A stretch of 64,000 nt of DNA from Escherichia coli (GCF_003790525.1 NZ_CP033635.1), one strand, 5' to 3'. Counted from the first letter of the stretch, positions 31,975 through 46,509 are shown. The notes: a model not told the origin generated them from the letters alone. Numbers and translations: made by a program.

Positions 31975-32095
31975 GTCTGACCGGCACTGTTGCCGGATGC
32001 GGCGTAAACGCCTTATCTGGCCTACGGGAGCATTTGTAGGCCTGATAAGACGCGGCAAGCGTCGCATCAGGCTTGGCTCGGTCGTCGGATGAATC
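31975..32095. repeat. REP (BIME) elements between yfaL and ubiG
   Basis: tgccggatgcggcgtaaacgccttatctggcctac and ggcctgataagacgcg…cgtcgcatcaggc REP motifs. Confidence 0.8.
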
Positions 32096-32107
32096 CAAAC
32101 AACAACC

Positions 32108-32830
32108 TCACTTATTCTGCGTATGCAGCATATAGTTCACATCAACGCCGGGGCCGAGCTTAAAGGAATTAGTTATAGGGTTGTAATGCAGCCCGGTCAT
32201 ATGCCGTTCTTTAAGACTGGTCTGATCCACCCAGCCCAGCAATTCTGCCGGTTTAATAAACTTCTTCACATCATGTGTACCTTTAGGCACCATGCGCAAA
32301 ATATATTCAGCACCAACCACCGCCATCAGCCATGACTTGCCGTTGCGGTTGAGCGTCGAGAAAAAGACATCGCCGCCCGGTTTCACCAGTTGCGCACAGG
32401 CTCTGACCACTGACTGAGGATCGGGGACGTGCTCCAGCATCTCCATGCAGGTCACCACATCATACTGCCCGGCATGTTTTGCCGCGTGCTCTTCCACGGT
32501 TTCCTGCACGTAATCCACCTGAATGCCGCTTTCCAGTGCGTGCAGTTTTGCCACCTGCAATGGCTCAAAGCCCATATCCAGACCGGTCACCGTCGCACCT
32601 TCGCGCGCCATACTCTCGGCCAGAATGCCGCCGCCACAACCGACATCGAGCACCTTTTTGCCAAATAAACCGCCAGCACGCTCGGCAATATAGCCCAGAC
32701 GCAGCGGGTTAATACGGTGCAGCGGTTTGAACTCACCTTCCAGATCCCACCAGCGGGAGGCGACGGCTTCAAATTTAGCGATCTCTTCGTGGTCTACGTT
32801 ATTGTTTTTAAGGAGATTTTCAGTGTTCAT
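32108..32830 (-). CDS. ubiG: UbiG, bifunctional ubiquinone-biosynthesis O-methyltransferase
   Basis: 240-aa ORF with SAM-binding motif ([13 protein letters not shown]). Confidence 0.95.
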
Positions 32831-32907
32831 TGTTACATAAGAGTCTATAAAGGTTGTCGGGCAGTATAGCAGGTGAAAAGTGCCAGTGTTATAAACTCAT
32901 TCACATT

Positions 32908-33606
32908 TTACTGTGTAGATAACGAGAGAATTTTTCGTGCGCGCTCGGTAAATCCACTACTTACGTGATGAGTAATAAAATTACAAACACCTTCAACGTT
33001 ATTATTTTTTAGCATATCTAAAATAGTCGCATGGCCACGATTTGAATTGGTGATATATTCCGTAGTGAAATCCAGTCGATAACGGATAGCAAGTAAACGT
33101 GCGGATATCAATTGGTGTGCCTGAGAGATGTATTTATTATCAGCGTATTTAACAAACACATAATGAAAATCATGATCCAGTTTAAGATAAGCCTGAGTAT
33201 CGCGCTCGGCATTAATTTTTGCTGATTTTGATAGTATACTATTTAGTTCAATGATGACATTGTTTGCATTCTTTTCCATTGCTTCACTAATTGCACCCTG
33301 CTCCAGAATTACTCGCATTTTTATGAGGTCATTAATATCTTTATCTGTTACGGAAAAAACGAATGTTCCGCTGCGTGGAATGATATTGATCAGATTTTCA
33401 TTGTGACTAAGTAAAATAAAAGCTTCACGAATAGGTGTTTTACTTACCGCCAGAATATTCGAAAGTTCATTTTCACTTATCGGTTGCCCAAGACTGAGAT
33501 CGCCATGAATTATCATATCCCTGATTTTTTCTTTGATGACCTGTGTTACGGATTTTGGTATCTCAATTGATATGTGACTTAAGTCACGTTTCGCTTTATC
33601 TCTCAT
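32908..33606 (-). CDS. GntR-family (FadR/FCD subfamily) transcriptional regulator; accessory-island gene
   Basis: 232-aa ORF with N-terminal GntR-type winged HTH (…LSENELSNILAVSKTPIREAF…) and C-terminal all-helical FCD-like domain; codons are AT-rich. Confidence 0.8.
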   Translation of the reverse strand: MRDKAKRDLSHISIEIPKSVTQVIKEKIRDMIIHGDLSLGQPISENELSNILAVSKTPIREAFILLSHNENLINIIPRSGTFVFSVTDKDINDLIKMRVILEQGAISEAMEKNANNVIIELNSILSKSAKINAERDTQAYLKLDHDFHYVFVKYADNKYISQAHQLISARLLAIRYRLDFTTEYITNSNRGHATILDMLKNNNVEGVCNFITHHVSSGFTERARKILSLSTQ

Positions 33607-33670
33607 TCCTTTGCCCCTTATTAAGCTGCTGGTCCATTATATGTAATCATTTTATCAATGAAGGTATCTA

Positions 33671-33753
33671 ATATATCAGATATGACAAAAATGATATATC
33701 TTATTGTTGTAGCTTAGTGTTTCAATCAATGATCAAGCTGATATATCAGATAT
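33671..33753. promoter_or_regulatory. Two copies of a 13-bp operator-like motif in the divergent regulator / transporter promoter region
   Basis: atatatcagatat occurs at 33671-33683 and again at 33741-33753; the core atatc-a-gatat is an inverted repeat. Confidence 0.45.
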
Positions 33754-33843
33754 AACACATCACCTTTTGAACTGGATTATTTTTTACGTAATATCCACTT
33801 CGGGCAGTACTCTTATTCATTGAACCACAAAAGGTGAAACAAA

Positions 33844-35172
33844 ATGAGCAGTCCTCAGAAAGATTTGTATGAAGCCATTTCTATTGTGAAAAGGAAGATT
33901 ATTCCGTTAGCATTTATTCTGTATTTTTTTAACTATATGGATCGTGTTAACATCGGATTTGCCGCTTTACGCATGAATGAATCCCTTGGTATTACACCAG
34001 AGGATTTTGCTAATATATCTTCAATATTTTTTGTGTCCTATTTGATTTTTCAAATTCCGAGCAGTATTGGATTGCAAAAGTTAGGTGCAAGAAAATGGAT
34101 TAGCGCCATTATTGTTGGTTGGGGAACAGTAACAACGTTAATTTTCTTTGCCAAAGACACCCAGCATATATTGCTCGCTCGGGTCTTTTTGGGAATATTT
34201 GAAGCGGGGTTTTTCCCTGGCATGGTTTACTACCTGGCATGTTGGTTCCCGGCGCGTGAACGTGGAAAAGTGAATAGCTTTTTTATGTTATCAATCGCAG
34301 TTGCATCTGTGCTGGCGGCACCAATGTCTGGTTGGATTATTGAACATATGAATACCGGTAACTATGAAGGATGGCGCTGGCTTTTTGCTATTGAAGGCAT
34401 TCCTACGGTGTTATTGGGGGCGCTGACCTTTTATTTACTGCCAGATCGTCCGGAAAAAGCCCGCTGGCTTACACCATCGCAAGTCACCGCATTGGTCGAT
34501 AAACTTAATTCTGATAACGAAAAAGCCGCAGCATTAAATAAAAATACAAATGCATCTTTTCTGTCAATCATTAAAAATCCAGTATTACTACAACTCTCAT
34601 TTGCTTATATGTTTATTCAGGCAGCGGCGTTGGCGGCAAATTACTGGTTACCGGGGTTGGTTAAAGGATTTTCATCGGATTTCACAGATACCGATGTCGG
34701 TTTGATTATGAGTATTCCGTTTATTTTCGCGATGTTCAGTATGCCATTATGGGGATGGCATTCCGATAAAAAGAATGAAAGGAAATGGCATGCCGCACTA
34801 CCGATGTTGGTTGCAGGTTGCGGTTTTTTAATGATCGCACTTGTACCTTCGATGACGCTGCGCATGATGGGATTAACATTATACGGTGTAGGCATTCTCA
34901 GTTATTACGGTCCGTACTGGGCTTTACCCTCAGCTTTACTTTCACCATCAGGCCTGGCAATCAGTATTGCGTTTATTAACTCTTGTTCAAGTTTGGGTGG
35001 TTTTCTGATCAATAAATCACTTGGCTATGTTTCTACACATTATGGAGCCACGGGGATATTTATTGTTGAGGCGATTCTTTGCTTTATCGCCGTAGCTATT
35101 TTGTTATCAATGAAAATTGATAATAAAAAAGATAACGCCCAGAAAGACAATGTTATTTCACATGCTAAATAA
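33844..35172 (+). CDS. MFS transporter of the anion:cation symporter (ACS) family, sugar-acid type (DgoT/RhmT/GudP-like)
   Basis: 442-aa ORF with motifs shared with the RhmT in this window (…DRVNIGFAA…, [11 protein letters not shown]…, WFPxRER). Confidence 0.8.
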   Translation: MSSPQKDLYEAISIVKRKIIPLAFILYFFNYMDRVNIGFAALRMNESLGITPEDFANISSIFFVSYLIFQIPSSIGLQKLGARKWISAIIVGWGTVTTLIFFAKDTQHILLARVFLGIFEAGFFPGMVYYLACWFPARERGKVNSFFMLSIAVASVLAAPMSGWIIEHMNTGNYEGWRWLFAIEGIPTVLLGALTFYLLPDRPEKARWLTPSQVTALVDKLNSDNEKAAALNKNTNASFLSIIKNPVLLQLSFAYMFIQAAALAANYWLPGLVKGFSSDFTDTDVGLIMSIPFIFAMFSMPLWGWHSDKKNERKWHAALPMLVAGCGFLMIALVPSMTLRMMGLTLYGVGILSYYGPYWALPSALLSPSGLAISIAFINSCSSLGGFLINKSLGYVSTHYGATGIFIVEAILCFIAVAILLSMKIDNKKDNAQKDNVISHAK

Positions 35173-35184
35173 ATGAGGTTATTT

Positions 35185-36387
35185 ATGAAGATTACATCTG
35201 TAGAAATTTTTGACTGCGAACTCAAAAAAAGAGATCAAACTATGGCCTCTTATAATCCAGTACTTATTCGGGTTAATACCGATGCTGGAATAAGTGGTGT
35301 TGGCGAAGTAGGATTAGCCTATGGTGCAGGTGCAAAATCTGGTGTTGGTATTATCAGAGATTTAGCCCCTCTCATCATTGGTGAAGATCCGTTGAACATT
35401 GAGAAGATTTGGGAATTCCTCTTCAGGAAAACATTTTGGGGAATGGGCGGTGGTAATGTTTTTTACGCAGGTATGAGCGCTATTGATATTGCCTTATGGG
35501 ATATTAAAGGTAAATATTTAAACGTGCCGGTTTATCAACTACTGGGGGGAAAGACTAACGATAAATTGAGAACTTACGCCAGTCAGTTACAATTTGGTTG
35601 GGGCGAAAAAAGGCAAATATTAGTAACGCCTGAAGAGTATGCAGAGGCAGCGCGTGCCGCTATTGCAGAAGGTTATAATGCGATAAAAGTTGATCCGCTT
35701 GAAATCGATCTGCATGGCGGCGATTGTGTCTTTCAGAACAAAAATAGAAATTACTCTGGCTTATTACTGGCCGAACAATTAAAAATGGGCGAGGCAAGAA
35801 TTGCCGCTATGCGTGAAGCAATGGGCGACGATGCTGATATTATTGTAGAGATTCATTCTCTTCTAGGAACAAATTCAGCGATCCAGTTTGCCAAAGCAAT
35901 AGAGAAATATCGTATTTTTCTCTATGAGGAGCCAATTCATCCATTAAATTCGGATAATATGCAGAAAGTTGCCCGTTCAACATCGATTCCGATAGCAACA
36001 GGTGAGCGTTCTTATACTCGCTGGGGATATCGTGATTTACTGGAAAAACAATCAATTGCGGTAGCTCAACCTGATTTGTGTCTTTGTGGTGGCATTACAG
36101 AGGGAAAGAAAATTTGTGATTATGCCAATATATATGACACAACCGTTCAGGTACATGTTTGTGGCGGGCCTGTTTCAACAGTAGCGGCGCTGCATATGGA
36201 AACTGCAATACCTAACTTTATTATTCATGAACATCATACCAATGCGATGAAAGCATGTATTCGGGAACTTTGTACTTACGATTATCAACCCGAGAATGGC
36301 TATTATGTCGCGCCAGAGTTGCCTGGGCTTGGTCAGGAATTAAACGATGAAATCGTACAACAATATCTTGCCTATGTGATCAAATAA
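35185..36387 (+). CDS. Enolase-superfamily sugar-acid dehydratase, GalD / mandelate-racemase subgroup (D-galactonate-dehydratase-like)
   Basis: ORF 35173-36387. Start preferred at ATG 35185 (MKITSVEIFD…) with a GAGG Shine-Dalgarno at 35175-35178. Has the KxK motif (WDIKGK), the metal-ligand region and the QPDLxxxGGITE motif typical of DgoD-like dehydratases. Confidence 0.8.
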   Translation: MKITSVEIFDCELKKRDQTMASYNPVLIRVNTDAGISGVGEVGLAYGAGAKSGVGIIRDLAPLIIGEDPLNIEKIWEFLFRKTFWGMGGGNVFYAGMSAIDIALWDIKGKYLNVPVYQLLGGKTNDKLRTYASQLQFGWGEKRQILVTPEEYAEAARAAIAEGYNAIKVDPLEIDLHGGDCVFQNKNRNYSGLLLAEQLKMGEARIAAMREAMGDDADIIVEIHSLLGTNSAIQFAKAIEKYRIFLYEEPIHPLNSDNMQKVARSTSIPIATGERSYTRWGYRDLLEKQSIAVAQPDLCLCGGITEGKKICDYANIYDTTVQVHVCGGPVSTVAALHMETAIPNFIIHEHHTNAMKACIRELCTYDYQPENGYYVAPELPGLGQELNDEIVQQYLAYVIK

Positions 36388-36403
36388 CGGCGATTTATAT
36401 ACT

Positions 36404-36660
36404 CTAAATAATTCGAGTTGCAGGAAGGCGACAAGCGAGTGACAAATTCGTCAGGAACGAATTTGCCCAGCCGCAGGCTGGCCTTCGGTGAGAGACATGG
36501 ATGTCTCTCATTAATCCCCAGGAGCTTACATAAGTAAGTGACTGGGGTGAGCGACAAATCCGCATGGAGCGGATTTGAACGCTGCTTGCAGCGGCCCCGT
36601 AAGGGGTGAGGTCCATGGATGGGCCGAATAACCCGCAGACGCAGCACATGCAACTTGAAG
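36404..36660. repeat. ERIC (IRU) repeat, long variant, upstream of gyrA
   Basis: Contains the ERIC core ccccaggagcttacataagtaagtgactggggtgagcg (exact ERIC2 primer sequence at 36532-36553) flanked by imperfect inverted-repeat arms. Confidence 0.75.
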
Positions 36661-36886
36661 TATGACGAGTATAGCCATTATTTCTGGTGTTTATTGAGGC
36701 ACAGGAAGCGTGTTGCGGTCTTTGTTCCTTTGTCGTTCACCGCCAGCGCGATGTGTGCTGGCGGTGGGGTAAAACGCAGTAGATCTACAGCGCCCGGAAG
36801 CCTGCATTACGTTTACCCGTCCGCAAGCGATTGTGTTATAATCTCCGACCTTTGAATCCGGGATACAGTAGAGGGATAGCGGTTAG

Positions 36887-39514
36887 ATGAGCGACCTTGC
36901 GAGAGAAATTACACCGGTCAACATTGAGGAAGAGCTGAAGAGCTCCTATCTGGATTATGCGATGTCGGTCATTGTTGGCCGTGCGCTGCCGGATGTCCGA
37001 GATGGCCTGAAGCCGGTACACCGTCGCGTACTTTACGCCATGAACGTACTAGGCAATGACTGGAACAAAGCCTATAAAAAATCTGCCCGTGTCGTTGGTG
37101 ACGTAATCGGTAAATACCATCCCCATGGTGACTTGGCGGTTTATAACACGATCGTCCGTATGGCGCAGCCATTCTCGCTGCGTTACATGCTGGTAGACGG
37201 TCAGGGTAACTTCGGTTCCATCGACGGCGACTCTGCGGCGGCAATGCGTTATACGGAAATCCGTCTGGCGAAAATTGCCCATGAACTGATGGCCGATCTC
37301 GAAAAAGAGACGGTCGATTTCGTTGATAACTATGACGGCACGGAAAAAATTCCGGACGTCATGCCAACCAAAATTCCTAACCTGCTGGTGAACGGTTCTT
37401 CCGGTATCGCCGTAGGTATGGCAACCAACATCCCGCCGCACAACCTGACGGAAGTCATCAACGGTTGTCTGGCGTATATCGATGATGAAGACATCAGCAT
37501 TGAAGGGCTGATGGAACACATCCCGGGGCCGGACTTCCCGACGGCGGCAATCATTAACGGTCGTCGCGGTATTGAAGAAGCTTACCGTACCGGTCGTGGC
37601 AAGGTGTATATCCGCGCCCGTGCGGAAGTGGAAGTTGACGCCAAAACCGGGCGTGAAACCATTATCGTCCACGAAATTCCGTATCAGGTGAACAAAGCTC
37701 GCCTGATCGAAAAAATTGCGGAACTGGTAAAAGAAAAACGCGTGGAAGGTATCAGCGCGCTGCGTGACGAGTCTGACAAAGACGGTATGCGCATCGTGAT
37801 TGAAGTGAAACGCGATGCGGTCGGTGAAGTGGTGCTCAACAACCTCTATTCCCAGACCCAGTTGCAGGTTTCTTTCGGTATTAACATGGTGGCATTGCAC
37901 CATGGTCAGCCGAAGATCATGAACCTGAAAGACATCATCGCGGCGTTTGTTCGTCACCGCCGTGAAGTGGTGACCCGTCGTACTATTTTCGAACTGCGTA
38001 AAGCGCGCGATCGTGCTCATATCCTTGAAGCATTAGCCGTCGCGCTGGCAAACATTGACCCGATCATCGAACTGATCCGTCATGCGCCGACGCCTGCAGA
38101 AGCGAAAACGGCGCTGGTTGCTAATCCGTGGCAGCTGGGCAACGTTGCCGCGATGCTGGAACGAGCCGGCGACGATGCTGCGCGTCCGGAATGGCTGGAG
38201 CCAGAGTTCGGCGTGCGTGACGGTCTGTACTACCTGACCGAACAGCAAGCTCAGGCGATTCTGGATCTGCGTTTGCAGAAACTGACCGGCCTTGAGCACG
38301 AAAAACTGCTCGACGAATACAAAGAGCTGCTGGATCAGATCGCGGAACTGTTGCGTATTCTTGGTAGCGCCGATCGTCTGATGGAAGTGATCCGCGAAGA
38401 GCTGGAGCTGGTTCGTGAACAGTTCGGTGACAAACGTCGTACTGAAATCACCGCCAACAGCGCAGACATCAACCTGGAAGATCTGATCACCCAGGAAGAT
38501 GTGGTCGTGACGCTCTCTCACCAGGGCTACGTTAAATATCAGCCGCTTTCTGAATACGAAGCGCAGCGTCGTGGCGGGAAAGGTAAATCTGCCGCACGTA
38601 TTAAAGAAGAAGACTTTATCGACCGACTGCTGGTGGCGAATACCCACGACCATATTCTGTGCTTCTCCAGCCGTGGTCGCGTCTATTCGATGAAGGTTTA
38701 CCAGTTGCCAGAAGCTACTCGTGGCGCGCGCGGTCGTCCGATCGTCAACCTGCTGCCGCTGGAGCAGGACGAACGTATCACCGCGATCCTGCCGGTGACC
38801 GAGTTTGAAGAAGGCGTGAAAGTCTTCATGGCCACCGCTAACGGGACCGTGAAGAAAACCGTCCTCACCGAATTCAACCGTCTGCGTACCGCCGGTAAAG
38901 TGGCGATCAAACTGGTTGATGGCGATGAGCTGATCGGCGTTGACCTGACCAGCGGCGAAGATGAAGTAATGCTGTTCTCCGCCGAAGGTAAAGTGGTGCG
39001 CTTTAAAGAGTCTTCTGTCCGTGCGATGGGCTGCAACACCACCGGTGTTCGCGGTATTCGTTTAGGCGAAGGCGATAAAGTCGTCTCTCTGATCGTACCT
39101 CGTGGTGATGGCGCAATCCTCACCGCAACGCAGAACGGTTATGGTAAACGTACCGCAGTGGCGGAATACCCAACCAAGTCGCGTGCGACGAAAGGGGTTA
39201 TCTCCATCAAGGTTACCGAACGTAACGGTTTAGTGGTTGGCGCGGTGCAGGTAGATGACTGCGACCAGATCATGATGATCACCGATGCCGGTACGCTGGT
39301 ACGTACTCGCGTTTCAGAAATCAGCATCGTGGGCCGTAACACCCAGGGCGTGATCCTCATCCGTACTGCGGAAGATGAAAACGTAGTGGGTCTGCAACGT
39401 GTTGCTGAACCGGTTGACGAGGAAGATCTGGATACCATCGACGGCAGTGCCGCGGAAGGGGACGATGAAATCGCTCCGGAAGTGGACGTTGACGACGAGC
39501 CAGAAGAAGAATAA
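36887..39514 (+). CDS. gyrA: GyrA, DNA gyrase subunit A; QRDR carries Leu83 and Asn87
   Basis: 875-aa ORF, full-length GyrA. Codon 83 (37133-37135) is TTG (Leu) and codon 87 (37145-37147) is AAC (Asn), within [11 protein letters not shown]. Confidence 0.97.
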
Positions 39515-39525
39515 TTTTACGTCTT

Positions 39526-39548
39526 CATGCCAAAAGGGAGATATCTCC
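39526..39548 (+). terminator. Hairpin terminator after gyrA
   Basis: aaagggagat-atctcccttgttt; 14-bp palindrome gggagatatctccc followed by a short T-rich stretch. Confidence 0.6.
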
Positions 39549-39662
39549 CTTGTTTGAATTGAAAAGTCCAGGCTGCAAAGTCTGGGCTTTTGTCGTATTA
39601 GGGCGCGGTAAAGTTTTGCTGTGCTCGTAAAAAATGGCTGGCTTTACACAAGGAATGTGGCA

Positions 39663-46509
<6,847 letters not shown>

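Follow-up and report, generated by a model that had tools for sequence, protein, structure and literature searches.

We analysed a window of 64,000 nucleotides of Escherichia coli DNA (GCF_003790525.1, NZ_CP033635.1) and found that it contains a gyrA gene in which codons 83 and 87 specify leucine and asparagine in place of the wild-type serine and aspartate. The best explanation, and almost certainly the correct one, is that this is the gyrA of the ST354 lineage carrying two derived substitutions, S83L and D87N, which would disrupt the bridge that holds quinolones on DNA gyrase. The genotype, its derived state, the lineage and the frequency of the pair were computed here, the enzyme mechanism and the effects on minimum inhibitory concentration (MIC) are taken from publications, and the phenotype of the source strain is deduced.

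The gene was identified from the open reading frame list and its translation, and encodes the A subunit of DNA gyrase (Table 1). The protein scored 1306.2 bits against TIGR01063, the NCBIfam equivalog model for gyrA (cutoff 877), and 576.7 bits against the parC_Gneg model TIGR01062, which is under that model's own cutoff of 628.9. Residues 1-525 align end to end with solved E. coli GyrA structures (3nuh, 6rks), and a gyrA annotation was present at this gene in the 5,425 genomes searched. In a base-by-base comparison with gyrA of K-12 MG1655 (b2231), both genes were colinear and 2628 nucleotides long, which rules out an error in frame or start site, and the N-terminal breakage-reunion domain and the C-terminal domain are both full length. 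The start, frame and codon coordinates given in the first-pass annotation were right, as judged by the translation, by TIGR01063 and by the K-12 comparison.

Relative to K-12, the window gyrA has 57 nucleotide differences distributed over 57 codons; 55 are synonymous and two are non-synonymous. S83L and D87N are the sole amino-acid changes from K-12 GyrA (NP_416734.1 / WP_001281242.1), a protein of equal length, and 873 of the 875 residues are identical. The leucine codon TTG and the asparagine codon AAC, as first reported, can be read directly in window bases 37127-37147 (ggt gac TTG gcg gtt tat AAC). Within the region that determines resistance to quinolones (QRDR), which in GyrA comprises codons 67-106, codons 83 and 87 are the only protein-changing ones, and the remaining differences from K-12 are silent (codon 85 GTC>GTT, codon 91 CGC>CGT). 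Residues A51, A67, G81, D82, A84, Q106 and Y122 are the same as in K-12, in agreement with the earlier description of A67, G81, D82 and A84 as wild type. Tyr122 is the catalytic tyrosine of E. coli GyrA and, because it is unchanged, the active site is intact. Judged from this comparison, the pattern of 55 silent changes against two at resistance sites indicates strong purifying selection on the gene combined with directional selection at two sites, as opposed to drift or error. That the wild-type residues given in the first-pass annotation were wrong is ruled out both by the K-12 gene, which has Ser83 and Asp87, and by the 2,653 genomes in which a wild-type 30-mer was found (see below).

Table 1. 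Coordinates of gyrA, its neighbours and related features. Positions are those of the window unless an accession is given.
Feature	Position	Strand	Remarks
Difference from SMS-3-5	31478		YfaL A1092S (GCG>TCG)
Accessory island between ubiG and gyrA	32831-36886		three genes, ~4 kb
GntR-family regulator pseudogene	32908-33650	-	annotated as frameshifted in SMS-3-5
MFS transporter	33844-35172	+	island gene
Mandelate racemase/muconate lactonizing family enzyme	35185-36387	+	island gene
Dispersed repeat in island-gyrA spacer	~36390-36673
Palindromic core of the repeat	36513-36553
gyrA leader	36834-36886	+	TGtTATAAT extended -10 element (TATAAT 36837-36842); conserved with K-12
gyrA CDS	36887-39514	+	DNA gyrase subunit A, 875 aa plus stop
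QRDR, codons 67-106	37085-37204	+	computed codon coordinates
Codon 83, TTG (Leu)	37133-37135	+	wild type TCG (Ser); C>T transition at 37134, from comparison with K-12
Codon 87, AAC (Asn)	37145-37147	+	wild type GAC (Asp); G>A transition at 37145, from comparison with K-12
Codon 122, TAT	37250-37252	+	catalytic tyrosine, unchanged from K-12
Terminator-like hairpin and T-rich tail	39534-39551
yfaS-equivalent alpha-2-macroglobulin family gene	41995-46509
Difference from SMS-3-5	42595		alpha-2-macroglobulin-family protein G201C (GGC>TGC)
Difference from SMS-3-5	51116		AtoE G146S (GGT>AGT)
parC	SMS-3-5 NC_010498 3386493-3388751		outside the window; parC/parE ~1 Mb away
parE	SMS-3-5 NC_010498 3402026-3403918		outside the window

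The order of genes in the window, ubiG, the three-gene island, gyrA and yfaA, matches the annotation of E. coli SMS-3-5. In K-12 the order is ubiG, gyrA, yfaA, with ubiG directly adjoining gyrA as a divergent neighbour 146 bp away, whereas in the window the accessory island is located between them, upstream of the gyrA promoter. The window gyrA therefore occupies the orthologous chromosomal position, with ubiG on one side and yfaA on the other. At least 80% of this island was present in only 140 of 5,426 complete E. coli genomes. Comparison of the 200 nucleotides upstream of gyrA with K-12 revealed near-perfect identity from TGTGTTATAAT to the ATG, which was lost farther upstream. Since the sequence becomes similar to K-12 again just upstream of the gyrA -10 element, the right-hand junction of the island lies close to the gyrA promoter. 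From this conservation and from knowledge of K-12, the leader and its extended -10 element probably function as the gyrA promoter; a simple consensus promoter scan did not call it, finding no -35 match above threshold.

Several other elements were observed around the gene. The spacer that separates the island from gyrA contains a dispersed repeat with 2-12 matches in every E. coli genome. Its palindromic core, AATCCCCAGGAGCTTACATAAGTAAGTGACTGGGGTGAGCG, is presumably an ERIC/IRU element in which two internal insertions seem to have increased the length, and an Rfam scan of positions 32000-40000 returned nothing at the gathering threshold, the repeat included. Downstream of gyrA a terminator-like hairpin, AAGGGAGATATCTCCCTT, with a T-rich tail starts 20 bp past the stop codon, before yfaA. 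The yfaS-equivalent gene beyond it is a single intact 4.5-kb CDS in the matching SMS-3-5 annotation; we take its K-12 equivalent to be split or pseudogenised.

Throughout its 64 kb the window differs from SMS-3-5 (NC_010498) by three bases. Positions 1-25000 are 100% identical to SMS-3-5, an alignment of 42,628 bases contained three mismatches, and positions 39001-64000 contained two, a score common to all of the best genomes; no genome in the collection searched was base-identical to the whole window. The gyrA gene has 100% nucleotide identity with that of SMS-3-5 (UniProt B1LKX7; RefSeq WP_001281225.1), in which S83L (TCG>TTG) and D87N (GAC>AAC) have already been described (PMC9081776). PMC9174282 uses SMS-3-5 as the reference genome for ST354, and ST354 has been placed under phylogroup F (PMC12817139). 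From its sequence, we assign the window gyrA to the chromosome of the ST354 / phylogroup F (SMS-3-5) lineage; the ST354 assignment rests on the near-identity of the backbone to SMS-3-5, the seven MLST loci being located outside the window. The identical gyrA allele was found in 28 other complete genomes among the 5,425 searched. Only 34 of the 5,425 were at least 99% identical to the window gyrA, and the other 5,391 were 95-99% identical. Genomes with the identical allele were recovered from humans, chickens, dogs, a pangolin, fish and river or surface water, a wide range of sources that agrees with ST354 being a clone of broad distribution.

All three differences from SMS-3-5 are outside gyrA and all are non-synonymous, and the window bases at 42595 and 51116 were absent from all best-matching genomes. 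Either the source strain truly has private variants at these positions or the bases were miscalled, and the strain itself may be a variant of SMS-3-5 or one of its sister isolates. We consider it highly unlikely that the window comes from an unsequenced ST354 variant in which recent selection produced the three changes, or that the double-mutant gyrase has aided the clone through altered supercoiling in addition to drug resistance, and either reading would leave the gyrA finding unchanged.

The nearest gyrA alleles from outside the clone are those of A22 (Australian possum), GF131 (chicken meat) and AR_0077, which are 12-21 nucleotides from the window allele. Because these closest relatives have TCG and GAC at codons 83 and 87, both substitutions are derived on the lineage's own backbone; the GyrA that each encodes is identical to that of K-12. 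Over the first 700 nucleotides of gyrA, A22 and the window differ only at nucleotides 248 and 259, which are the two resistance mutations. The window gyrA with both changes reverted (T37134C and A37145G) was found in no genome of the collection. When the reverted gene was used as the query, all 28 genomes with the identical allele were two mismatches away and two more differed at one further base, which gives about 30 genomes on this backbone, and no single-mutant intermediate was seen on it among the 34 genomes at 99% identity or above.

Resistant gyrA alleles are known to transfer between E. coli lineages, and the pair in the window is found on the commonest codon-85 haplotype, GTT, as it could be had the allele entered this lineage from a different resistant clone through homologous recombination rather than been created by two de novo mutations. 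However, the backbone and flanks of the allele are native: A22, GF131 and AR_0077 have the backbone of synonymous sites in common with the window, as well as the mandelate-racemase-family gene upstream, and an import would need either a marker-free patch of a few hundred bases or a donor with the same backbone. Import therefore has a slim chance of being correct; it is not needed to explain the gyrA pair, and it touches the origin of the pair alone, not its function.

The distribution of the pair was determined with a 30-mer spanning codons 81-89 and a megablast exact seed of 28 bases, such that a match requires both mutated bases. The L83/N87 30-mer was found in 1,370 genomes with GTT at codon 85 and in 331 with GTC, placing the double mutant in at least 1,701 of 5,426 complete genomes (31%), a count that, like those that follow, is a lower bound for the genotype and, because complete RefSeq genomes over-represent clinical and resistant isolates, not a population prevalence. 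The wild-type S83/D87 30-mer was found in 2,014 genomes with GTT and 639 with GTC (together at least 2,653 of 5,426; 49%), and its carriers include K-12, the type strain ATCC 11775, Nissle 1917, E. coli C and O157:H7. The other 1,072 genomes (20%) have different combinations or haplotypes at these codons. The occurrence of the pair with either form of codon 85 indicates recurrent origin or transfer. Other pandemic fluoroquinolone-resistant clones of E. coli, presumably including ST131-H30, ST1193 and ST410 as carriers of the same gyrA pair, share the TTG and AAC codon changes with the window on different gyrA backbones. One plasmid-typed record in the E. coli collection had a full gyrA match together with the double-mutant 30-mer; it probably represents either a chromosomal contig that was wrongly assigned or a plasmid that has picked up chromosomal DNA.

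The mechanism by which the pair would act is the loss of quinolone positioning. Fluoroquinolones kill by lodging in the DNA break that gyrase makes, where a water-Mg2+ bridge holds them in the productive position. The C3/C4 keto-acid of the drug chelates an Mg2+ ion, and two of the four waters of this ion hydrogen-bond to Ser83 and Asp87 (PMC9917921). In the window protein both substitutions are on GyrA helix alpha-4; Leu83 removes the hydroxyl and adds bulk, and Asn87 removes the carboxylate. With the bridge lost, cleavage complexes would no longer be stabilised by the drug, and the enzyme would remain catalytically competent at little or no fitness cost. Gyrase would then cease to be a sensitive target, and topoisomerase IV would set the MIC of the cell, so that high-level resistance also needs changes in ParC/ParE, which are present in this lineage.

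Published biochemistry of purified gyrase is available for each of these changes. Ciprofloxacin-induced cleavage is strongly reduced by S83L or D87N singly, and the S83L/D87N enzyme shows essentially none at concentrations up to 500 μM (PMC9917921). All of these mutants remain sensitive to a metal-independent quinazolinedione, with which ciprofloxacin still competes, indicating that the bridge mainly positions the drug (PMC9917921). The laboratory S83L/D87N GyrA (in MG1655 LM625 and as purified enzyme) has a protein sequence identical to that of the window GyrA. The two settings differ in that ParC S80I stands by itself in the laboratory strain, whereas the genome closest to the window has ParC S80I+E84G and ParE I355T, an ST354 background and other synonymous sites.

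In isogenic MG1655 strains the ciprofloxacin MIC was 0.016 μg/ml for the wild type, 0.25 μg/ml for GyrA D87N, 0.38 μg/ml for GyrA S83L and again 0.38 μg/ml for GyrA S83L+D87N (PMC2714960). ParC S80I alone left the MIC at 0.016 μg/ml, and the combination of GyrA S83L+D87N with ParC S80I raised it to 32 μg/ml at a relative fitness of 1.01 (PMC2714960). Because the MIC is the same for S83L alone and for the pair, the second gyrA mutation brings no measurable increase as long as topoisomerase IV remains unprotected. The gyrA pair is thus necessary, but not sufficient, for high-level resistance. The first-pass annotation had called S83L and D87N the canonical pair for high-level quinolone resistance in E. 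coli. The first part of this description stands, the pair being the commonest in gyrA of fluoroquinolone-resistant E. coli (PMC2714960, PMC9917921); the attribution of high-level resistance to the pair alone does not, given the MIC of 0.38 μg/ml.

The same annotation had pointed to parC codons 80 and 84 and to parE elsewhere in the genome, and these were read in the nearest relative. Compared with K-12, SMS-3-5 ParC has S80I (AGC>ATT), E84G (GAA>GGA) and D475E, and its ParE has V136I, V153I and I355T. ParC codon 80 of SMS-3-5 differs from that of K-12 by two bases, which implies either that AGT was the wild-type codon in the lineage or that the change took two steps. Extending the topoisomerase genotype of SMS-3-5 and of a published ST354 isolate (PMC11183298), we infer that the source strain has ParC S80I+E84G and ParE I355T. 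On the strength of the 64-kb near-identity to SMS-3-5, the source strain is very likely to be highly fluoroquinolone resistant, with parC, parE, efflux regulators and any plasmid qnr lying outside the window. SMS-3-5 itself has been described as multidrug resistant with very high MICs (PMC3688849). The original suggestion that the source is very likely a fluoroquinolone-resistant isolate is therefore upheld, on a wider basis than the gyrA pair, namely the near-identity to SMS-3-5 and the ParC and ParE of that strain.

Since parC and parE are outside the window and the pair alone gave 0.38 μg/ml in isogenic MG1655 (PMC2714960), it could be argued that the source is only low-level resistant, with an MIC of about 0.4 μg/ml and no topoisomerase IV mutations. 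We regard this as very unlikely indeed. The window is 3 of 64,000 bases from a genome that has ParC S80I+E84G and ParE I355T, and the same five-mutation genotype (gyrA S83L+D87N, parC S80I+E84G, parE I355T) has been reported in another ST354 isolate (PMC11183298). In addition, clinical isolates usually combine the second gyrA mutation with parC changes, ParC S80I being present in 15 of 18 clinical S83L+D87N isolates (PMC2714960). High-level resistance of the source strain thus remains the preferred reading.

Some divergence is expected of an allele as lineage-specific as this one (34 of 5,425 genomes at least 99% identical; 57 differences from K-12), but the idea that S83L and D87N have no effect on drug susceptibility, being neutral polymorphisms of the lineage or errors of sequencing, is exceedingly improbable, because none of the other 55 codons that differ alters the protein, wild-type codons stand at 83 and 87 in the closest alleles on the same backbone, the same two changes are found on different haplotypes in 1,701 genomes, the identical allele is present in 28 independently sequenced genomes, the purified double mutant is insensitive to ciprofloxacin, and the MIC of isogenic mutants is 24-fold up.

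In summary, S83L/D87N, the mechanism of these substitutions, their effects on MIC and their presence in the ST354 lineage are all already published, and the window gyrA does not depart from known QRDR gyrA alleles in anatomy, context or sequence. Alone, the gyrA pair predicts low-level resistance only, the level depending on parC and parE. The finding is of diagnostic use: from the two codons the source can be recognised as belonging to the globally spread fluoroquinolone-resistant ST354 lineage.
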